Below are positions 9,491-54,173 of a DNA stretch of 64,000 nucleotides, one piece after another. This DNA comes from Candidatus Nomurabacteria bacterium (lineage in GTDB: Bacteria; Patescibacteriota; Minisyncoccia; Phycocordibacterales; UBA9973). The notes beneath the pieces were generated by a model that searched no databases, was not told where the DNA came from, and worked only from the letters and a program-made list of their open reading frames with translations. The DNA lies in NCBI GenBank assembly GCA_023267375.1, contig JAHFNJ010000002.1, positions 23,634-87,633 on the forward strand. The letters are read 5' to 3'. The position numbers and the translations under genes are program-made. How positions within the stretch are numbered: the first letter of the stretch is position 1; each line of letters opens with the position of its first letter.

Positions 9491-9575
9491 CGGAGACGGT
9501 GAGATTCGAACTCACGAGGGCTTGCGCCCTGCCTCCTTAGCAAGGAGGTACGTTAGACCACTCCGACACGTCTCC
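9491..9575 (-). tRNA. tRNA-Ser (anticodon GCT), type II with a long variable arm
   Basis: The reverse complement folds into a cloverleaf. The acceptor stem is GGAGACG/CGTCTCC. The anticodon arm is CCTCC-TTGCTAA-GGAGG. The variable arm is 16 nt and the T-arm is GTGAG-TTCGAAT-CTCAC. CCA is not encoded. Confidence 0.7.
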
Positions 9576-9670: not shown

Positions 9671-9755
9671 GGAGGCGTGGATGAGTGGTTTAAATCAACG
9701 GTTTACTAAACCGTCGTTCCGCAAGGAACCGTGAGTTCGAATCTCACCGCCTCCG
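9671..9755 (+). tRNA. Type-II tRNA, Ser-like, with an apparent anticodon ACT
   Basis: The acceptor stem is GGAGGCG/CGCCTCC and the D-stem is GAT/ATC. The anticodon arm is ACGGT-TTACTAA-ACCGT. The variable arm is GTTCC-GCAA-GGAAC and the T-arm is GTGAG-TTCGAAT-CTCAC. The anticodon position is unusual (see findings). Confidence 0.55.
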
Positions 9756-9767
9756 CAAATGAAAATT

Positions 9768-38097: not shown

Positions 38098-39561
38098 TTA
38101 TTTTTTCAGTAGTTCCATTTTAATTTGTGCTTTTATTTCCTCGAATTCTTTTTTGAGTTTTGGTTCAATAATAGAATGCGCCTCATATTCTAAAGTAGTA
38201 GGATTGGAGTACATATCTAGTTGTGCTTCGTCGTAGGTTACTCCCTCGGCTTTAGCAACTGAGTCTGTGTGATGGTAGTCTTTATTATGCCAATCCTGGT
38301 ATTTCTTTTTGTCAGTTGCATATTGCGCTGCATGGCTCAATTCAGCAATGTAATCTTCGAGTTTAAAACTACCGGTATAACTTGGTAAATGCATGGTGTT
38401 CCCAAATGAGCTATATGATGCTCTGTCATGGAAACGAGGGAATTGGCCATATACTGCCTTTGGTTTACCGTATCGTTCATTTATTCGTAAAAGGGCGACA
38501 TAGTTTAGTTTGCTCTCAAAATCGGAAATGATACCAGTGGGTTCTCCCTCACCATTTTGGAGATAGTCTTCTCGTAATGATGCTATAAAGAACTCACTAC
38601 TGTCTTCTCTTGCTAAGAATTCACGCCACTCTTTAGGTAGTTTTTTGTCTCCTGCAATAGAATGAAAAATAATAGTAGTAGTTGAATCTACCGGCTCATT
38701 CTGTAAAGCATTATTATAAACACTATCCATTTTAGACCCTAAAAATGTATCCATTTTTAGTTCTCCTCCTTTTTGAGTGGCCCAAGATAGTGCTGTAATA
38801 GAAAATGCCCAGACGGCAGTTCTGGTTGCCCATTTTTTGAACTGGGACGCCAGAGCGTCCATTATTAAGAGTTGTTTCGCAATAACGTTTTTACCAGATT
38901 GCATGTTCTCTGGCGTGAAAACTCCCAGTGCTTTCAGTCCATCTGAAAGTTTTGTGTTAAGCTGCATTTTTCTTTTTTCTTGGTACTCTCGTACGGTATC
39001 AAGAAATGCGTTTACACCATCTTCGTATCGAGCTCCCTCTAATTCCTCGTATTTTTTCCAAGCTTCAGTATACTTTTCATACACCGGATTATTATTTTCA
39101 TTCAAGAAAGTGCGCCTTGCTTCTGATGCTTGTAGGTAGGTTTCCCGTTTTCTGTCTACAACAGCATCTTCTTCAGGAAATTTTTCACGCACTAGACGAT
39201 AGAGTTCCCACTCTGCTTTGTCGTACTCATTTCTCTTCTCTCCATAGCTATTGTATAAAACCTGTGCCTCATCATGATCTTCACCAACCTCTTCTCTTTT
39301 GTCGTAATAATTATTCCAACGAGTATTTTTTTCTTCTTCCAGTATTTTTAGGGCCTGGTATTCAGTAGGGAATCGTTGCTGTAATTTCTCTTCTTCTGCG
39401 CGATATTCGTTGTATAAGAGATTAGTTTCGACGTCTAATTTTTCATAATGGCTGTTGACCATTGCCAATTGTTCTTTTGCTATCTCCAAACGAGTATGTG
39501 CCAAGCGTTCATTTGTTGGCTCAAGAACTCCTTTTGCATTTTCTGGTTTACCTTCAAGCAT
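38098..39561 (-). CDS. Hypothetical 487-aa protein, E/K/Y/W-rich coiled-coil N-half with a central TM helix
   Basis: No motif was recognised. It contains a TM helix (TAVWAFSITALSWA). Its start overlaps the stop of an upstream 48-aa ORF. Confidence 0.4.
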   Translation of the reverse strand: MLEGKPENAKGVLEPTNERLAHTRLEIAKEQLAMVNSHYEKLDVETNLLYNEYRAEEEKLQQRFPTEYQALKILEEEKNTRWNNYYDKREEVGEDHDEAQVLYNSYGEKRNEYDKAEWELYRLVREKFPEEDAVVDRKRETYLQASEARRTFLNENNNPVYEKYTEAWKKYEELEGARYEDGVNAFLDTVREYQEKRKMQLNTKLSDGLKALGVFTPENMQSGKNVIAKQLLIMDALASQFKKWATRTAVWAFSITALSWATQKGGELKMDTFLGSKMDSVYNNALQNEPVDSTTTIIFHSIAGDKKLPKEWREFLAREDSSEFFIASLREDYLQNGEGEPTGIISDFESKLNYVALLRINERYGKPKAVYGQFPRFHDRASYSSFGNTMHLPSYTGSFKLEDYIAELSHAAQYATDKKKYQDWHNKDYHHTDSVAKAEGVTYDEAQLDMYSNPTTLEYEAHSIIEPKLKKEFEEIKAQIKMELLKK

Positions 39562-39700: not shown

Positions 39701-39823
39701 ATAAAAAGTATATCATATTGAGCAGAGTCCTAATTTAGGGTACCTCAGGGTTATTTTAGAGCCTCTCCTGAGGTGATATACTAAGCTTGTTTTTGAGGAT
39801 TAAAAAATACCTAAAATTACTTA

Positions 39824-41263
39824 ATGTTTTCTAAAAAAACTTTTATTATTGTCACTATATTCTTTATTACGGCAACTTTACTCACGCCACTCTTTTTAGT
39901 TTCGGCTGTTGACGAGGGGAGTGTTCCACCAGCAGATGATGGTTCGGGAAGCGTTACTCCTCCTGCGGATCCCAAAACAGTCGATCCTGTCCCGTCTGAC
40001 CCAGGTGGATCAGGATCGACTGACCCTACTCCCGCACCCATTGTTACTGATCCTGCTCCACCAGCCAGTGATCCGGTCCAACCAGCTCCTTCACCAAAGG
40101 AGACAAGTACTCCTCCCTCTACGCCAGTTTTTACTACTGGGGGATCGACACAGCCAACTATTGCTCCCGAGGTATCAACTGAAGACTTTTCTGCAGTTAA
40201 TCCTACGACTCAAAATCCAGACTCATCAAAAAATAATCTTGCGTTGATTATTGGGGCGCTCGCGCTTTTTGGTGGAGGAGTATTTGCATTTAAGGCGAAT
40301 CAGAAAAAGAATGATGGCCCATGCGATACAATAAAAACAAAGCTTGAGCAGAAGAAGACTGAATTGGCAAACGTTGATCAAAAACTTTCCCTGCAAGAGA
40401 TTGCTAAACAAAAATTGGCAGAAGAGATTGAGAATAAAAAAGAAAGTCTTAAAGAAAAAGCAATTACCAAAGTGAAAGATAAGACGCTCGAAAAGATAAA
40501 TAGTGAAATTCTCAAAAAGACTATTGAAAAAGCTGAGAAGGGGAAAGAACTATATGACACGCTGGTTGAAAAGAAAGATGAAGCCGAGAAGTTGATTGAA
40601 GTTTTAAAAGCAAAACGGCAAGGACTTTCAAGTGAAGTGCAGAAACTCGAATCGGAATATAAGGTGTGTGTGGCTGGCGTAACGAGTGCCTCAGTTGTTA
40701 AAAAAGGGGGAATAGTACTTCCGTTACTGGGAAGTATGCCAAAAAAAATCTATATCACGGGTGTTTCTGGAACAGGGAAATCTAGTATAGCTTTAAAACT
40801 AGCAGAAAAAGGAATTCCCTCAATTGATATAGATGAAATAAAAGATTTATGCAAATGGGTACACAAGGACACAAAAGAAATTACTCATTGGTATCCTGGG
40901 GTCGGCGGTCAGTTCTTTGAGTCCTATAAGTATATTTGTGATAAAGAAAAATTGATTAGTTTAATGGGAGAACATAAAAATGAAACTGTTGTAGTTGTAG
41001 GACTCGCAGATAATCAATCAGAATTTTTTGATTTATTTGATACGGTATTTCTATTTCAGTGTAAACCAGATGTTTTTTTGAAAAGAATTACCGATAGAAC
41101 AAATCATGATTTTGGAAAACATGATTCCGAAAAGAAAATGATTTTGGGTTGGTACAAGGATTTTGAAAAAGAAGTGTTAGAAAAGAAAGCAATCCCAATA
41201 GATACTGAAGCTCCACTTGAGAAAGTGCTCAAAGTTGTTATTTCTGAGATTGGAAAACTATGA
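39824..41263 (+). CDS. Single-pass membrane protein: signal peptide, Pro/Thr-rich extracellular region, TM helix, coiled coil and a cytoplasmic P-loop kinase-like (AAA_18/shikimate-kinase-like) domain
   Basis: The signal reads MFSKKTFIIVTIFFITATLLTPLFLVSA. The P/T/D/S-rich low-complexity stretch is about 110 aa. The TM helix is LALIIGALALFGGGVFAF. The Walker A motif is KIYITGVSGTGKSSIALKL, and a Walker B-like hhhhD motif is VVVVGLAD. Confidence 0.5.
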   Translation: MFSKKTFIIVTIFFITATLLTPLFLVSAVDEGSVPPADDGSGSVTPPADPKTVDPVPSDPGGSGSTDPTPAPIVTDPAPPASDPVQPAPSPKETSTPPSTPVFTTGGSTQPTIAPEVSTEDFSAVNPTTQNPDSSKNNLALIIGALALFGGGVFAFKANQKKNDGPCDTIKTKLEQKKTELANVDQKLSLQEIAKQKLAEEIENKKESLKEKAITKVKDKTLEKINSEILKKTIEKAEKGKELYDTLVEKKDEAEKLIEVLKAKRQGLSSEVQKLESEYKVCVAGVTSASVVKKGGIVLPLLGSMPKKIYITGVSGTGKSSIALKLAEKGIPSIDIDEIKDLCKWVHKDTKEITHWYPGVGGQFFESYKYICDKEKLISLMGEHKNETVVVVGLADNQSEFFDLFDTVFLFQCKPDVFLKRITDRTNHDFGKHDSEKKMILGWYKDFEKEVLEKKAIPIDTEAPLEKVLKVVISEIGKL

Positions 41264-41505
41264 CCTTTTTCATTTATATTCTCGAATGCGTTGACGCGAC
41301 ATTGTATGTCGGCTCTACGAATGATCTTGAAAAGAGAGTGCATGCGCATAATCACTTAAAGAGTGGTGCGCACTATACCAAAATTCGCCGGCCGGTGGTG
41401 TTGAAATATTCTGAAAAAGTACGAACGTATGCAAAAGCTCGAAGCAGGGAAGCAGAATTGAAGAGATTGAGTCGGGGAGAGAAACTCAAGTTAATAAAAA
41501 AATAA
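41260..41505 (+). CDS. Small GIY-YIG nuclease-superfamily protein (UPF0213/YhbQ-like)
   Basis: It reads IYILECVDATLYVGSTNDLEKRVHAHN...YTKIRRPVVLKY.E..R..A..RE...K, the GIY-YIG motifs. Its ATG overlaps the upstream stop (ATGA). Confidence 0.7.
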   Translation: MTFFIYILECVDATLYVGSTNDLEKRVHAHNHLKSGAHYTKIRRPVVLKYSEKVRTYAKARSREAELKRLSRGEKLKLIKK

Positions 41506-41508
41506 GGA

Positions 41509-42297
41509 CTATTCTTTATACGGTTTCGCAGTGCTCCATAATCCTTCAAAGAGTGCCGAGATAGTATCGTTGTGCTCCTTTGAGGTGACTAAAATCGCGT
41601 AGCAGTTCTCGTATGAAGAAATGTAGAGTGTTTTATCATCAAAGAGAAAGATGGTCGTTTTAAATTTTCCCTTCATGACGTCTGGGAGCATGCGAATTCT
41701 TGAAAACGTTGCGTAGTATTTTTTAAAATCGGATGGTTTTATTTTTGCTTCCCATAAATTGCGGGTAGTGATATTTCGCTGGCGACGCTCCTCCACATAC
41801 TTTCGGATGAATTCTTCACCGAATCCCCAGAAAAATGTATGTTCGGGTACGATCAGATCAACTTTTTTACTTTTTGCATACATCACATCCATTACGACAT
41901 GTTTTACCGCATCGACTCCTTCAAAAAAAGAGACCATTGGCTTTTCAATCTTTGATGCTGATGATGAAACCAGGCTTGGCAGAAGCTCGCCGATTTGTTC
42001 AGTGAGATTTACCGCTTCATCTTCTTTTTCGCGGGCGATAGCAACCAGGCGTTCAAAAGGGGAAAGGGTAAACGTAAAGTCCGACTGCTTGCCCGATTTT
42101 GAAACCAGCCCTCTCTTCTCAAGCGAGTTCAATGCATAGTAAATAGTCGGCCGTTTCATCTTGGTCGTCTTCATGAGATCGTGCGCAGTTCGAGCACCAG
42201 CCACCATGCGCAAGTAGACGGTGATTTCGGATTCCGTCAGTCCCAATTTTTGCAGTTGTTTCTCTGGTTGATTCATCCGGTTAGTGAGAAATGGCAT
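41509..42297 (-). CDS. TrmB-family transcriptional regulator
   Basis: The N-terminal wHTH reads LQKLGLTESEITVYLRMVAGARTAHDLMKTTKMKRPTIYYALNSLEKRGLV, followed by a C-terminal TrmB-type domain. The true start may be the second ATG at 42276 (see findings). Confidence 0.65.
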   Translation of the reverse strand: MPFLTNRMNQPEKQLQKLGLTESEITVYLRMVAGARTAHDLMKTTKMKRPTIYYALNSLEKRGLVSKSGKQSDFTFTLSPFERLVAIAREKEDEAVNLTEQIGELLPSLVSSSASKIEKPMVSFFEGVDAVKHVVMDVMYAKSKKVDLIVPEHTFFWGFGEEFIRKYVEERRQRNITTRNLWEAKIKPSDFKKYYATFSRIRMLPDVMKGKFKTTIFLFDDKTLYISSYENCYAILVTSKEHNDTISALFEGLWSTAKPYKE

Positions 42298-48162: not shown

Positions 48163-48518
48163 TCTCGTTATTTTAGCATAGTAATCTTATTTCCTTGGTT
48201 TAGTAGATTTTTTTTGTTTTCTTTGGATTTGGACTTTTCCACACGTTAAGCACCTGTTTTCACCAGTTGGAGGTTTCCTTTTTTTGACATTTCATATCAA
48301 AATGGAATCATGAGGGGTTCGCTGTCATGTTTTTTGGCTGCGAACGGCTGGTTTAGGGCATAAAGATAGAGGAAAGGTTCTCTTCTGTTTTAGTTGAGTC
48401 GTATGTGAAAACAAATTATGTAGACTTTTTCGTGGTGGGCTACATTTTATGGGAACACGAGGTCGTGGGTAATTTTAGTAAGTTATGTTTTTATAAGCTA
48501 AATTTAATTTTTAAAAAT

Positions 48519-51500
48519 ATGAAAAAAAATATATTCGAAAGTATAAAAAAATATGTGTCCTTTGTTTTTGTTCTCGCATTTTTTGTAGCGATAGTTGGTT
48601 TTGTGTCATTTCAGACCGTTAAGGCAGATGACACCGATACGGGCACAGACATCACTGTTCCCACTGATCCAGTAATTCTACCTTCAGTAGAAGATCAAGC
48701 TCCGTCGACGGATCCAGTGGTTCCACTAGTAGAGGATCCCGCGCCGACAATTGATGATGGCTCTGTGCAGACAGATACTGATATTGATATTGATAGCGTG
48801 CCGCAAACTGATGTTGTGCCATCTGAAGATTCCGCTCCAGCGCCTTCAGTTCCTGTTATGGCTCCAGAGCTCTCAAGCGACAAAGGCGACTATCATCCAG
48901 GAGAGACCGCAACTATTTTTGGAAAATACTTTGGCGCACTTGGTGATTTTATTTTGAAGATTTTCGGAAGCGATGATAATGATAATAATTACACCGAGTC
49001 TATTCAAACAGTAACGGCTGATGCAAATGGGGAATTTACTTCTTCCTATAATCTCGATGATCTTTACAGACCGTTTTATCAGATGACTGCATCAGCGCTT
49101 GATGGCACGATACTCGCAGAGGGAATGTTTCGTGATTCTGCAATTGGTACCTATGACCAATGTTCAAACGATCTTGGTTCTGGTTATGGTTCAGGAGATA
49201 CGGGGTGTCGTTGGACGAATGGTAACTTACAAGCAAACAATTCTACATATATAGAAGGCGACTCAACTGTTCAGCGTCTTTGGATTGAAGGATATGCTCC
49301 AGGCTCAACTCACACTGTTACATTCCAATACGGAACAACAAAACAAGGGAAGCGCGCATATGATTTTCTTACATCATGGGATGCGTCTGAAAATTGGGTG
49401 ACTGTCGCTGATCGTTGTCAGGATATTGCCGGATGTACAACCGCCTCTGAGACAACACTTCCAATTCCTTCTGATACAAACGGTTCAGGACAATTTGAAA
49501 CAGGAACAAGAAACTTTACGCTTCGTGGCGGAACATTAAATAGTGCAACTTCCCCAGCTATCGTTTCTGGAACATATACTGGTGACAGTGAGACTGCTAT
49601 CACGGTTACTTTTACCGTTGGTCCATCAAATGGAGCAATGTGTAAAACGAAATCAAATGTAACGAGTTGCGGTATCGCAATCTGGTTCGGAGCTCACATC
49701 GCAAAAACGTCACAGTGGAATCCGTTTGACGGTACTACAGGGGCTGGTTCAATCTCTGGTTCTCCTTATCACGTAGCACTTGCTGAAGAAGATGGAGCGT
49801 CTGTTGGACAGCGCGATAACCAAATGCAGGCAAACGCGATTATTCCAGCAAGTACAATCACTATTCACAAGGTGACAAGTCCTGATGCTGCTGATCCAAC
49901 TGTATTTAATTTTACGACCTCTGGAACAGGCTATGGCAACTTTACACTCACTGGTGGAAACCAAAATCAACAAATAGTAACTGGTACGGGAAATTTCTCA
50001 GTAACCGAAACTGTTCCTGCTGCTTGGAGTAACACTGGTTTGACTTGTACTTCATCTGGTACAGGATCTTCTGCTACACCAAATCTTGTAAATCACTCAG
50101 TAGCGATCACCATTGGTGCTGCTGGAGGTGCGACAATTGATTGTATTTATACAAACACTCTACAACAGGCCCATCTTACACTTGTAAAAACAGTTACGAA
50201 TGATAACGGTGGCACAGCAGCGACAACTGCATGGACGCTTTCTGCTTCAGGTCCAACTCCGATTTCTGGAGCAACTGGTAGTGGAACTGTAACGAATGCT
50301 TCAGTCAATGCCGGTCAGTACTCACTTTCCGAAAGTGGTGGACCATCTGGCTACACTGCGGGGACTTGGAGTTGTGTCGGTGGAACACAAAATGGTTCAA
50401 ACGTCACGCTTACTGCAGGACAAAGTGCAACTTGTACAATAAACAACAATGATAACGCTGCTCATCTTATTGTTATTAAAAATGTGATTAATGATAATGG
50501 TGGCACTAAAGTTGCTGGTGATTTCTCAGGAACTATTTCTGGTGTGACTGCAGTTGGTGGAAATACTTGGACTGGAACAATTTCTCCTGGTTTGGATAAG
50601 ACACTCGCAACTGTTGGCGCATACAATGTGACTGAAAACGCAGATGCTGGATATAACACTACATACTCAACTGATTGTGTAGGAACGATTGCGCTCGGCG
50701 AGACTAAAACATGTACAGTAACAAACAATGACAAGCCGGCTCATTTGATCGTTATCAAACACGTTATTAATGACAATGGTGGAACAAAAACTGCTTCTGA
50801 TTTCACTATGACAATTGGCGGTGTTACAGCGGTCGGAGGTAATTCATTTGCTGGTGCTGAAAATCCTGGTATTGACAAGACACTTTCAACCGTTGGTGCA
50901 TACACTGTTACCGAGGGTGCAGTTTCTGGTTACACTCAAACTTCTGCTTCAACTGATTGCTCTGGAACAATTGCACTCGGGGAAACAAAAACTTGTACGA
51001 TTACGAACGACGATATCTCACCAAAACTCACTGTCACTAAGATTGTCATCAATGATAACGGTGGAACAAAAGTAGTTTCTGATTTCCCACTCTTCGTTGG
51101 AAACACAGGAGTAACTTCAGGTGTACAGAATAATTTCAACGCAGGTGCATATGTTGTTTCTGAAACAACTGACGCAGGCTATACAAGTACAATCTCAGGC
51201 GATTGTGATGCACAAGGGAATGTCTCACTTGCACTTGCTGATGTAAAAGCATGTACCATCACCAACAACGACATCGCTCCTACACTTAAAATCGTAAAAA
51301 CTGTTATCAACGATAATGGTGGTACAAAAGTAGCATCTGATTTCCAAGGTAAAATTGATGGAAACAATACTGCATGGAACGTAGCACAAACAGTGTCTGC
51401 CGGTTCACATACTGCATCTGAAACAAATCTCCCAGGATACACAGCTGGCGTATGGGGAGGTGATTGTGCAGCTGATGGATCAGTTACACTTGGTTTAGCA

Positions 51501-54173
51501 GAAAACAAAACTTGTACAATTACAAATGATGATCAGCAGGCATACATCATCGTAGACAAGACAGTAATCAACGATAATGGTGGGACAGCAGCACCAAATG
51601 ATTTCTTGCTCACTGTTGATGGAAATGCAGTTTCTGATGAAGTGGCGTATCCTGTAAATCCAGGCGTACACACTGCAGGCGAAACACTTCTTTCTGGATA
51701 TCAAGCAGGTGCATGGGGAGGTGATTGTAATCAAAATGCATCAGTAACTGTTGCTCTTGGTGAAACAAAGACTTGTACGATCACCAACAACGATATTCAG
51801 CCAACACTTAAACTGATCAAGCATGTTGTGAACGATAATGGCGGAACGAAAGTAGTTTCTGATTTCCCATTGTTTGTTGATGCAACTCCTGTTGTATCTG
51901 GAGTAGTTAATGGATTCAATGCAGGATCATACACTGCTTCTGAAACAAATCAGACAGGTTACCAAGCTTCATCATGGAGTGGCGACTGTGCAGCTGATGG
52001 ATCAGTAACACTTGGAATTGGCGAGAATAAAGTATGTGAAATTACGAACGACGATATCTCACCAAAACTCACTGTTACTAAGATTGTCATCAATCATGGC
52101 GGAAACAAACAAGTCTCTGATTTCCCACTCTTCGTCGGAAACACAGGAGTAACTTCAGGTGTACAGAATAATTTCAACGCAGGTGCATATGTTGTTTCTG
52201 AAACAGGTGATTCAAATTACACTGCAACAATTTCTGGTGACTGTGACACACAAGGAAACGTAACTCTTGCTCTCGCCGACGTTAAAGCATGCACGATTAC
52301 AAACGAAGAAAAACCAGCGAAAGTTATTGTTCATAAAATTGTGATTAACCATGGCTTAACAAACGACGCGACACATTTCGCACCGTACAAGGTTGGTACC
52401 ACGACTGTTACTTTGGACACTGAAACAACCATGAACTCTGGTTCATACGTTGTCTCTGAAGCGACTGACACCAACTACAATGCAACATTTACCGCTGGTG
52501 ATTGTGATGCAAATGGAAATATTACACTTACCCCAGGAACAACAAAATCTTGCACGATTACAAACGAAGAAAAACCTTCAACTCTCAAATTAGTTAAGAC
52601 AGTCATCAATGATAACGGTGGAACAAAAGTAGTTTCAGATTTCGTATTGAAAATTGACTCAACCCCAGTCACTTCAGGTGTAGCAAATTCTGTAAATTCT
52701 GGATCGTACACTGCAAGTGAGATAAATCTCCCAGGATACACAGCTGGCGCTTGGGGAGGAGATTGTGCAGCTGATGGATCAGTGACTGTTCCATCAGGTA
52801 CAAACAAGGTGTGTACCATCACCAACAACGACATCGCTCCTACACTTAAAATCGTAAAAACTGTTATCAACGATAATGGTGGTACAAAAGTAGCATCTGA
52901 TTTCCAAGGTAAAATTGATGGAAACAATACTGCATGGAACGTAGCACAAACAGTGTCTGCCGGTTCACATACTGCATCTGAAACAAATCTCCCAGGATAC
53001 ACAGCTGGCGTATGGGGAGGTGATTGTGCAGCTGATGGATCAGTTACACTTGGTTTAGCAGAAAACAAAACTTGTACAATTACAAATGATGATCAAGTAG
53101 CTCATCTTATTGTTATCAAGCATGTTATTAATCATGGCGGATCGGCTGTAGCGGGGAACTTCACTATGAATGTGACTGGTACGAACGTTTCAAACCCTTC
53201 ATTTGCTGGAGCAGAAAATCCAGGTACAAATGTTACTCTTAATGCCGGAAGTTATTCTGCTGATGAATCATTAAATGCAAATTATACGAAAACTCTCGGC
53301 GCAAATTGTTCTGGCACGATCGCAAATGGTGAGACCAAGACCTGTACAATTACCAACGAAGAGAAAACTGCAAAAATTACTATCATCAAAGATGCGCAGC
53401 CAAATGACTGTCAGGACTTCGCTTTCACAGCGACCGGTCAGAGTGGTTTCTCTCTCGATGATGACAATAACGATGCTTCATGTACCGATACGAACCAGCC
53501 TGTTTCTAAATCATTTACGAATGTGAATACAGGAAATATGACGATCACTGAAACACAGCCGAACTCATTCTGGAAGCTCTCTGGCGCGACTTGTGTGAAT
53601 ACGGTTGGTGGGGGAACATACGCTTCTTCACTTGCGGGCACTTCACTGACGGTAAATCTTACACCGGGGGCAGATGTGACTTGTACCTTTGTTAACTACA
53701 AAGCAAGTCCAACCAGAACACAGGGTTTCTGGCAGACTCATACAACGTACACAACTTCCGTGTTCAATGCCGCTCCACTTTCTGGCTCAATGTTCATCGG
53801 CAATGGCACGACGCATAAGGGTCCAGTTGATACGATCGGCAAAGTGTTCGGTGCTTTCTACTCAAACATTGCGAAGAAAACTGTCGGTGGAAATCGCACA
53901 TCGATTGATAAGGCCCGCATGCAACTTCTGCAACAACTCGTTGCTGCGAAGTTAAACTGCGCAAACTTCGGCTGTTCAGCATCTGTACAAACAATGATTA
54001 CTGCAGCTGATGCTGCCTACGCAGGCACGTCAGAAGCAGCTATCTTGAGTTTTGTTGGACAGGTTGACGCGTACAACAACTCAGGTGATACGCTTACTAT
54101 CGGCAACGCCGGAAGTGCGACACCTCAGACTTCAAAGACGCTTGCCAACATGGCTTTCTGGGATCTTCCGTAA
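48519..54173 (+). CDS. Giant repetitive cell-surface protein, about 1880 aa. It has a signal peptide, an acidic Pro-rich stalk and about 14 tandem beta-sandwich repeats of about 85 aa each.
   Basis: The start is taken at MKKNIFESIKKYVSFVFVLAFFVAIVGFVSF. The repeat unit is L.[IL]VK.VINDNGGTK..SDF....G.......G.Y..SE....GY.......C.....V.L..G..K.C[TE]ITN[DNE][DE]. The ORF-track start at 48405 carries a poorly supported N-terminal extension. Confidence 0.7.
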   Translation: MKKNIFESIKKYVSFVFVLAFFVAIVGFVSFQTVKADDTDTGTDITVPTDPVILPSVEDQAPSTDPVVPLVEDPAPTIDDGSVQTDTDIDIDSVPQTDVVPSEDSAPAPSVPVMAPELSSDKGDYHPGETATIFGKYFGALGDFILKIFGSDDNDNNYTESIQTVTADANGEFTSSYNLDDLYRPFYQMTASALDGTILAEGMFRDSAIGTYDQCSNDLGSGYGSGDTGCRWTNGNLQANNSTYIEGDSTVQRLWIEGYAPGSTHTVTFQYGTTKQGKRAYDFLTSWDASENWVTVADRCQDIAGCTTASETTLPIPSDTNGSGQFETGTRNFTLRGGTLNSATSPAIVSGTYTGDSETAITVTFTVGPSNGAMCKTKSNVTSCGIAIWFGAHIAKTSQWNPFDGTTGAGSISGSPYHVALAEEDGASVGQRDNQMQANAIIPASTITIHKVTSPDAADPTVFNFTTSGTGYGNFTLTGGNQNQQIVTGTGNFSVTETVPAAWSNTGLTCTSSGTGSSATPNLVNHSVAITIGAAGGATIDCIYTNTLQQAHLTLVKTVTNDNGGTAATTAWTLSASGPTPISGATGSGTVTNASVNAGQYSLSESGGPSGYTAGTWSCVGGTQNGSNVTLTAGQSATCTINNNDNAAHLIVIKNVINDNGGTKVAGDFSGTISGVTAVGGNTWTGTISPGLDKTLATVGAYNVTENADAGYNTTYSTDCVGTIALGETKTCTVTNNDKPAHLIVIKHVINDNGGTKTASDFTMTIGGVTAVGGNSFAGAENPGIDKTLSTVGAYTVTEGAVSGYTQTSASTDCSGTIALGETKTCTITNDDISPKLTVTKIVINDNGGTKVVSDFPLFVGNTGVTSGVQNNFNAGAYVVSETTDAGYTSTISGDCDAQGNVSLALADVKACTITNNDIAPTLKIVKTVINDNGGTKVASDFQGKIDGNNTAWNVAQTVSAGSHTASETNLPGYTAGVWGGDCAADGSVTLGLAENKTCTITNDDQQAYIIVDKTVINDNGGTAAPNDFLLTVDGNAVSDEVAYPVNPGVHTAGETLLSGYQAGAWGGDCNQNASVTVALGETKTCTITNNDIQPTLKLIKHVVNDNGGTKVVSDFPLFVDATPVVSGVVNGFNAGSYTASETNQTGYQASSWSGDCAADGSVTLGIGENKVCEITNDDISPKLTVTKIVINHGGNKQVSDFPLFVGNTGVTSGVQNNFNAGAYVVSETGDSNYTATISGDCDTQGNVTLALADVKACTITNEEKPAKVIVHKIVINHGLTNDATHFAPYKVGTTTVTLDTETTMNSGSYVVSEATDTNYNATFTAGDCDANGNITLTPGTTKSCTITNEEKPSTLKLVKTVINDNGGTKVVSDFVLKIDSTPVTSGVANSVNSGSYTASEINLPGYTAGAWGGDCAADGSVTVPSGTNKVCTITNNDIAPTLKIVKTVINDNGGTKVASDFQGKIDGNNTAWNVAQTVSAGSHTASETNLPGYTAGVWGGDCAADGSVTLGLAENKTCTITNDDQVAHLIVIKHVINHGGSAVAGNFTMNVTGTNVSNPSFAGAENPGTNVTLNAGSYSADESLNANYTKTLGANCSGTIANGETKTCTITNEEKTAKITIIKDAQPNDCQDFAFTATGQSGFSLDDDNNDASCTDTNQPVSKSFTNVNTGNMTITETQPNSFWKLSGATCVNTVGGGTYASSLAGTSLTVNLTPGADVTCTFVNYKASPTRTQGFWQTHTTYTTSVFNAAPLSGSMFIGNGTTHKGPVDTIGKVFGAFYSNIAKKTVGGNRTSIDKARMQLLQQLVAAKLNCANFGCSASVQTMITAADAAYAGTSEAAILSFVGQVDAYNNSGDTLTIGNAGSATPQTSKTLANMAFWDLP
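51252..51535 (+). repeat. 284-bp segment 100% identical to 52812-53095 (intragenic direct repeat, copy 1)
   Basis: Checked base by base from tgtaccatcaccaacaacgacatcgctcc... to ...caattacaaatgatgatca. The offset between copies is 1560 bp. Confidence 0.9.
52812..53095 (+). repeat. 284-bp intragenic direct repeat, copy 2
   Basis: Identical to 51252-51535. The flanking repeats, for example 51001-51240 versus 52041-52280, are similar but diverged. Confidence 0.9.

Follow-up and report, generated by a model that had tools for sequence, protein, structure and literature searches.

A rare, predicted membrane-tethered P-loop kinase encoded next to a minimal GIY-YIG nuclease in a Nomurabacteria genome: probably two independent genes

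The DNA considered here, referred to as the window, is a stretch of 64,000 nucleotides (nt) from a Candidatus Nomurabacteria bacterium (contig JAHFNJ010000002.1, positions 23,634 to 87,633 of the forward strand). Two overlapping genes within it encode a protein of 479 amino acids (aa) that carries a P-loop kinase domain and an 81-aa protein of the GIY-YIG nuclease family. A sequence-only reading of the same DNA had seen in them a possible unit for nucleic-acid end-processing at the membrane or a toxin/defence pair. Our analysis points instead to two functionally independent genes that are packed together, the first being a rare tethered version of a widespread soluble kinase, and we consider this explanation likely.

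Both open reading frames (ORFs) and their overlap were confirmed. The kinase-domain ORF (39824–41263, + strand) and the GIY-YIG ORF (41260–41505, +) each begin with ATG. The TGA stop codon of the first (41261–41263) and the ATG of the second (41260–41262) are superposed in GGAAAACTATGACC, which gives a 4-nt ATGA overlap at 41260–41263 (+). An independent Logan assembly (L002) contains the identical 479-aa ORF together with the GIY-YIG gene, and in a short ENA contig (L003) the GIY-YIG gene follows the 3' part of this upstream ORF. The pair is therefore no assembly artefact of the window. No terminator-like site was found between the two genes in a scan of the window, and they are probably co-transcribed. 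With a G+C content of about 42 % and 12 of 45 same-strand neighbouring gene pairs overlapping or lying at most 10 nt apart, the window belongs to a packed genome, for which co-transcription alone carries little functional information. No further copy of either gene was found elsewhere in the window. The top matches of both proteins come from metagenome-assembled genomes (MAGs) of Patescibacteria (Nomurabacteria, Paceibacterota, Saccharibacteria).

Conservation of the pair was surveyed at 160 loci of the kinase family, 80 from genomes and 80 from metagenomes. A GIY-YIG gene adjoins the kinase gene in 0/80 genome loci and 0/80 metagenome loci, and a tblastn search with the kinase against the loci of close GIY-YIG relatives (L004–L010, L091–L099) returned nothing. 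Non-adjacent GIY-YIG homologues occur within the flanks at five genome and three metagenome loci (8/160). Kinase-family loci with such homologues include L013, L034, L038, L067, L068, L128/L129 and L169. The resulting density is about one GIY-YIG gene per 140 kb of sampled kinase-family loci, so that occasional chance adjacency to any gene is to be expected. A PADLOC scan for defence systems gave noise only, with no defence signature. The supposed kinase–GIY-YIG system is most plausibly two genes brought side by side by chance in a compact genome. Since the pair is not a conserved unit, it gives no grounds for a new pathway of nucleic-acid processing or defence, and the main practical value of the finding is that it prevents annotation of the pair as a system.

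The 81-aa protein (41260–41505, +) is a stand-alone GIY-YIG protein of the UPF0213 or prokaryotic Slx1-like type, as assigned by Pfam, by two UPF0213 structures and by its varied contexts. The Pfam family GIY-YIG (PF01541) is matched with an E-value of 9.3e-15 and 55.1 bits (cut-off 22.6), and the structures 1ywl (E 2.8e-11) and 1zg2 (E 5.3e-09) are matched over aa 1–80. FIY, LYVG, R26 and E64 align with both structures; the catalytic Tyr, Tyr-x-Gly, Arg and Glu are present and the pattern Y..YxG..R..H.N..YT..E is kept. Such proteins are minimal prokaryotic Slx1-like GIY-YIG nucleases, a group that typically lacks auxiliary domains (Dunin-Horkawicz et al. 2006, PMC1564403). At least 4083 homologue clusters were retrieved, all of them significant, and the best 120 share 72–85 % identity with the protein. 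These 120 relatives stem from many different MAGs, one of them labelled Bacteroidota. For such divergent genomes this identity is high and may reflect several copies per genome or horizontal mobility.

The genomic surroundings of the GIY-YIG gene were compared for seven close relatives and the copy near the kinase homologue P0001 described below. All eight contexts differ and none contains the kinase. The gene lies between a response regulator and an Exo_endo_phos gene, between an ABC transporter and a 61-aa ORF, between TspO and an aldo-keto reductase, or between an ABC gene and an HI0933-like gene; in other cases it adjoins a cation ATPase gene with an ABC-F gene further off, His_Phos_1 or VIT1, or lies in the vicinity of an M23 peptidase gene. 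Overlaps of 4 nt with unrelated neighbours were found at L004, L006 and L099. Thus the idea of a special partner gave way to a widespread UPF0213-type protein beside unrelated genes. Judged by its sequence and surroundings, the GIY-YIG gene is an independent, typical minimal nuclease of known type and no conserved partner of the kinase.

The 479-aa protein's C-terminal portion (aa 305–479; 40736–41260, +) is a P-loop nucleoside/nucleotide-kinase-like domain, as indicated by motifs and fold. The compact kinase domain proposed before was borne out by a confident structural model and by Pfam AAA_18 (PF13238), which is matched at aa 309–436 with an E-value of 6.9e-10 and 39.9 bits (gathering cut-off 29.4). 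The domain combines a Walker A motif of the form GxxGxGK[ST] (GVSGTGKS, 40760–40783) and the lid arginine with a three-layer α/β fold resembling that of nucleoside monophosphate (NMP) kinases. A DxD motif (IDIDE), the strand VVVGLADNQ, the lid sequence RxxxR and FGK were also recognized. Three outcomes had been named beforehand as speaking against the kinase–nuclease idea. Two of them, non-conservation of the pair and a ubiquitous UPF0213 protein beside unrelated genes, were observed; the third, loss of catalytic residues, was not: all invariant positions are intact, among them G313, G316, G318, K319, the second Asp of the IDIDE DxD, W345, G393 and R421, and R425 of the lid RxxxR is also invariant in alignment A2. 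The catalytic machinery looks intact, and from these residues the kinase is predicted to be active.

After a search with the full-length protein, the family searches were repeated with the kinase domain alone. A phmmer search with aa 295–479 against 1.84 billion cluster representatives gave 1126 matches at E≤1e-3; the best 150 are almost without exception 160–180 aa long, with the match beginning at residue 2. In a word-indexed search the nearest relatives were stand-alone proteins of 170–184 aa with 64–69 % identity. These matches mark the domain as an unexceptional member of a large family of small, soluble kinases, mostly from Patescibacteria and about 170 aa long when stand-alone. No experimentally characterized member of this family was found in the literature.

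Structure comparison placed the fold closest to dephospho-CoA kinase (DPCK) and AK6. The scores were 14.4 for AK6/hCINAP, 13.9 for archaeal adenylate kinase, 13.8 for both nicotinamide riboside kinase and UMP kinase, 13.1 for gluconate kinase and 13.0 for shikimate kinase. Foldseek results were concordant, with NMP and nucleoside kinases at template-modelling scores of about 0.6–0.66. Polynucleotide kinase (Pnk), whose fold the sequence-only reading had suggested, appeared at rank 46 only, and zeta toxin was absent from the top 60 fold matches. The fold therefore points towards a small-molecule kinase acting on a ribose/sugar hydroxyl or an NMP and not towards a polynucleotide kinase. In a comparison of the family profile with PDB sequences, matches to DPCK (9.6e-06), uridine kinase (9.8e-06) and shikimate kinase (1e-04) were obtained, as well as a match to the Zeta_1 toxin (7.8e-05) over a 62-residue stretch. 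These matches are at superfamily level only, and the domain is claimed by no known subfamily. A single-domain sequence search of the PDB gave no significant match.

In the full-length protein (39824–41263, +; supported by ORF, Pfam, AlphaFold model and the identical copy in L002) the kinase domain is preceded by a membrane module. The Kyte–Doolittle plot exhibits two hydrophobic segments, aa 5–30 and aa 137–159. The first belongs to a signal-peptide-like or anchor helix (aa 1–29; 39824–39910, +) composed of MFSKK, a hydrophobic core and VSA/VD, with a hydropathy maximum of 2.49 and a model helix at aa 4–19; its cleavage may be supposed. It is followed by a Pro/Thr/Ser/Asp-rich, disordered segment of about 105 aa that is predicted to be extracytoplasmic (aa 30–135; 39911–40228, +; values of the predicted local distance difference test, pLDDT, 29–47). 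Over aa 30–139 the composition is 23 % Pro, 14 % Ser, 14 % Thr and 10 % Asp, and in the AlphaFold model of the full protein aa 20–135 are without structure (pLDDT about 30–45). The second hydrophobic segment is the single transmembrane helix LALIIGALALFGGGVFAF (aa 136–159; 40229–40300, +), modelled as a helix at aa 136–148 and followed by the basic KANQKK. Hydropathy, composition and model thus agree with the signal-like helix, the roughly 110-aa Pro/Thr/Asp-rich segment and the one transmembrane helix described earlier.

Behind the membrane helix lies a K/E/L-rich stalk (aa 166–290; 40319–40693, +) that is modelled as two long helices, 166–220 and 227–290, with pLDDT 75–94; aa 166–300 contain 21 % Lys, 15 % Glu and 11 % Leu. 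Of the coiled coil of about 150 aa that had been proposed here, the long helices stood, two in number and about 120 aa in total, but a canonical heptad pattern was not found: in a crude heptad count over aa 166–300 no 28-residue window had at least six of eight a/d positions occupied by L/I/V/M. For this reason we speak of a stalk of two long helices without calling it an established coiled coil; according to the model it may form a hairpin or an intermolecular coiled coil. A flexible linker (aa 291–304; 40694–40735, +; pLDDT <50 for aa 291–302, which are disordered in the model) ends directly before Met305 in alignment A1, and the kinase domain behind it is modelled with confidence.

Since the basic KANQKK follows the transmembrane helix (positive-inside rule) and the kinase needs ATP, we infer an N-out/C-in topology from the sequence. 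The Pfam family Gram_pos_anchor gave a weak match (E 0.012), in which profile positions 15–43 cover only the transmembrane helix and tail. A sortase-anchored surface protein was considered and rejected, as an LPXTG motif is absent and the transmembrane helix is followed by 320 aa. The sensor-kinase-style layout suggested earlier is not favoured, because the outside segment is disordered and has no folded domain. We prefer to see in the N-terminal module a tether or spacer for localization or oligomerization, not a sensor.

To what extent this architecture recurs was followed in several searches. The full-length query returned a single homologue, P0001 (= L034), from a database of 5.8 billion proteins because low-complexity words filled the candidate list. 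P0001 is a 415-aa protein from a "Saccharibacteria" MAG with 34 % identity across 97 % of the query, and consists of a signal-like helix, EGSVP, a Pro-rich stretch, a transmembrane helix, a K/E-rich helical stretch and the kinase domain. The transmembrane helices of P0001 and the window protein are very alike (LAIIAGALALMGVGAF vs LALIIGALALFGGGVF). Among the 160 kinase-family loci from genomes and metagenomes, a long N-terminal extension of membrane type occurs in P0001 alone. A tblastn search with aa 1–304 against the 80 genome loci matched its locus alone, and a pattern search for the transmembrane motif found only the window, the L002 copy and P0001. None of the 5' neighbours of stand-alone kinases combines a Pro/Thr-rich sequence, a transmembrane helix and a K/E-rich sequence.

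The kinase domains of the window protein and P0001 share 47 % identity; each is closer to a stand-alone protein, the window domain to P0273 (69 %) and the P0001 domain to P0315 (71 %). With low-complexity sequence masked, the two N-terminal modules exhibit marginal similarity only (E 0.006 and 0.067), and a single origin of the fusion is therefore not claimed. Synteny common to the two loci was looked for and none was found. The junction in P0001 has no ATG, GTG or TTG, so that its kinase is made only as a fusion. In the window protein, Met305 lines up with the methionine at which the stand-alone homologues begin (MKK[IF]YITG; alignment and codon check). From these comparisons the tethered architecture appears to be a rare, lineage-specific form of an uncharacterized small-molecule kinase, with two examples.

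The neighbours of the kinase family are heterogeneous and insufficient for an assignment of the substrate. The kinase gene lies directly 5' of dnaK in 6/80 genome loci, a PaaX-like regulator adjoins it in 6/80 genome loci and one metagenome contig, and a GrpB gene adjoins it in three (L027, L038, L063) of the 80 genome loci. In the Patescibacterial loci L016, L018, L019, L020, L022 and L023 the stand-alone kinase gene is located 11–17 nt 5' of dnaK (at about 4998–5520 in L016, L018, L020 and L022, 1940–2458 in L019 and 3852–4376 in L023). It is directly preceded by grpE in L016, and in L018, L020, L022 and L023 a divergent PaaX-like regulator with a Cas2-like domain lies 5' of it. This suggests that the kinase is part of a chaperone operon in one lineage. 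Two family members are fused to other domains, P0133 to GrpB and P0160 (= L055, 3901–4992) to a 2H/LigT-type phosphoesterase, and both fusions, like the adjacent GrpB genes, are possible clues to the kinase substrate. CoaE–GrpB fusions exist in mycobacteria; the link between kinase and GrpB parallels them and fits the DPCK-like fold.

In the explanation we favour, Sec-dependent insertion by way of the signal-like helix and the transmembrane helix would leave the disordered, Pro/Thr-rich segment of about 105 aa outside, in the envelope, and the kinase domain would be kept at the cytoplasmic membrane face by the two long helices and the flexible linker. There it would transfer the γ-phosphate of ATP to a hydroxyl group of a nucleoside-, nucleotide- or cofactor-like small molecule, a substrate class suggested because the nearest structural relatives (DPCK, AK6, nicotinamide riboside kinase and NMP kinases) do so. 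The GIY-YIG gene would be a housekeeping or selfish minimal nuclease that abuts whatever gene it lands beside, and the ATGA overlap would stem from co-transcription and the compaction of the genome and would not mark a two-component system. Several observations weigh against this explanation. On the strand opposite to P0001, at a distance of 2.3 kb, there is a GIY-YIG gene; with such genes in the flanks of 8/160 loci, this is a weak coincidence. Only two tethered examples are at hand and their kinase domains are not mutual closest relatives, a pattern compatible with one or two fusion events. Met305 sits at the stand-alone start, and translation from it could yield part or all of the kinase in untethered form. 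Finally, the substrate may be macromolecular, and the fusion of P0160 to a 2H/LigT-type phosphoesterase recalls RNA-end-healing enzymes.

The start position at Met305 bears above all on a recent, near-neutral read-through, in which the stop codon of a preceding gene, one encoding a small surface or membrane protein, was lost, Met305 still serves as the start of a functional, soluble kinase of about 175 aa, and no particular function attaches to the 479-aa product. The exact alignment with the stand-alone start, the disorder of aa 291–304 just before it, the nesting of both fused forms among stand-alone relatives and the occurrence of fusion in just one of 160 other family loci all fit this scenario. 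Against it, P0001 has the same four-part N-terminal layout with a junction free of start codons, so at least one lineage expresses the fusion, and the 479-aa ORF is identical in the independent assembly L002. Further, no good Shine–Dalgarno sequence lies at the proper distance from Met305 (GGGAAG is 1 nt from its ATG and AAGGGGGAA about 30 nt 5'), and nothing points to an adjacent gene from which the N-terminal module could have come, since none of the 5' neighbours of stand-alone kinases looks like it. On balance we regard read-through as unlikely. The view that the tether is adaptive and that, in a few Patescibacteria, it keeps an otherwise soluble salvage-type kinase at the membrane's inner face to phosphorylate and thereby trap a nucleoside- or cofactor-like metabolite during import from the host is a speculative extension to which we give rather little credence; the protein would then possibly be dimerized via its helical stalk and placed in the envelope by the Pro/Thr-rich ectodomain. 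A still bolder version would have the disordered ectodomain relay envelope or contact signals to the kinase.

A translationally coupled pair of tethered kinase and GIY-YIG protein that processes nucleic-acid ends at the membrane during DNA uptake or repair would be consistent with the ATGA overlap and the probable co-transcription, with the catalytic residues kept in both proteins, with the one family member fused to a 2H phosphoesterase and with the GIY-YIG gene near P0001. The absence of adjacency from all 160 kinase loci, the absence of the kinase from all eight GIY-YIG contexts, the low rank of Pnk among the fold matches and the generic UPF0213 nature of a nuclease that overlaps unrelated genes elsewhere speak against it. 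Non-conservation largely refutes this coupling, and we regard it as very improbable. Even less can be said for a toxin/antitoxin or anti-phage defence pair made up of a zeta-toxin-like kinase and a nuclease effector. GIY-YIG nucleases are found in some defence systems, and the partial Zeta_1 match in the PDB profile search points in the same direction, but Pfam Zeta_toxin is not matched, no zeta toxin is among the top 60 folds and the PADLOC output is noise; we give this idea practically no weight. Two independent genes, one encoding a tethered small-molecule kinase, thus remain our preferred explanation.

If the tether is functional, the protein would represent a rare enzyme of nucleoside/nucleotide-kinase fold with the build of a type-I membrane protein. 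Localized salvage metabolism in ultra-small, host-dependent bacteria would then be suggested, and the protein would offer a way into a large kinase family (1126 representative clusters) that is found mostly in Patescibacteria. Should the proposed coupling to metabolite uptake be true, the architecture would be previously undescribed for an enzyme of NMP-kinase fold.

Upstream of the 479-aa gene, a 262-bp divergent intergenic region contains one promoter-like site found in a consensus scan (TTTAGA-16-TATACT, TG-extended; 39755–39782, +). It is weak, as promoter-like sites are no more numerous than expected from shuffled sequence. The same region contains a perfect 8-nt inverted repeat (I8), ACCTCAGG-N17-CCTGAGGT (39742–39774, +). 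Its 3' arm overlaps this sole promoter-like site 5' of the kinase gene, and the repeat could therefore be a putative operator. On the other side of this region a 487-aa ORF (38098–39561, –) with a Glu/Lys-rich N-terminal half runs divergently from the kinase gene; it has no match in Pfam, NCBIfam or PADLOC, and no homologue of it was found near other kinase loci. The gene of a TrmB-family regulator (41509–42297, –) ends 3 nt past the GIY-YIG stop codon. Further away, ARAGORN and Rfam revealed two divergent tRNA-Ser genes 95 nt apart (9671–9756, +; 9490–9575, –) with the anticodons GCT and ACT (A34) and 85 % mean column identity. An unmodified-type A34 tRNA-Ser(ACU) is unusual in bacteria. A full-length LOOT RNA (RF03000, a small RNA motif) lies at 3250–3368 (–) with 78.4 bits (gathering cut-off 46.4) and an E-value of 4.4e-13, and a very large ORF of 1922 aa with a GTG start is found at 48405–54173 (+).

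Among known proteins, the stand-alone AAA_18 kinases of Patescibacteria of about 170 aa are 64–69 % identical to aa 305–479 and have every invariant residue in common with them. In the source records they go under the names "AAA family ATPase", "dephospho-CoA kinase" or "broad-specificity NMP kinase". In comparison to them, the window protein adds a 304-aa N-terminal module that is absent from 159 of the 160 other loci. CoaE itself (PF01121) was rejected as the family of the domain, with 15.7 bits against a cut-off of 27 (E 0.012) and a match to the P-loop only; the homologues reach 16–19 bits. The identity to CoaE structures (PDB 8dv0, 2if2, 1jjv) is about 20 %, and between strands 2 and 3 the window kinase has a small β-hairpin element that carries conserved C-x-W and C-D motifs and may or may not correspond to the CoA-binding domain of DPCK. 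On the basis of these sequence differences the substrate probably differs from that of CoaE.

T4 Pnk and Clostridium Pnkp belong to the same broad P-loop kinase superfamily as the window kinase; Pnk is not its closest relative by fold or by sequence. The combination of a kinase with a 2H/LigT phosphoesterase is known from RNA repair enzymes. A zeta toxin or defence kinase was likewise dismissed on the results given above. The 81-aa protein aligns end to end with the NMR structures of the UPF0213 proteins EF2693 (1ywl) and BH0048 (1zg2), without an auxiliary domain and with no notable difference; the UPF0213 or Slx1-like group corresponds to COG2827.

For the layout of the 479-aa protein, the bacterial tyrosine (BY) kinases of the Wzc/CapAB type offer a comparison, as they have a Walker-A domain at the cytoplasmic membrane face and a transmembrane module with an extracytoplasmic segment. 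BY-kinase domains are MinD/SIMIBI-like, with Walker A' and Walker B motifs and a C-terminal Tyr cluster, and come with two transmembrane helices and a folded periplasmic domain. The window protein, in contrast, has an NMP-kinase-like fold, no Tyr cluster, a single transmembrane helix after the signal-like helix and a disordered outside segment. By this analogy the likeness to BY kinases would be one of layout only.

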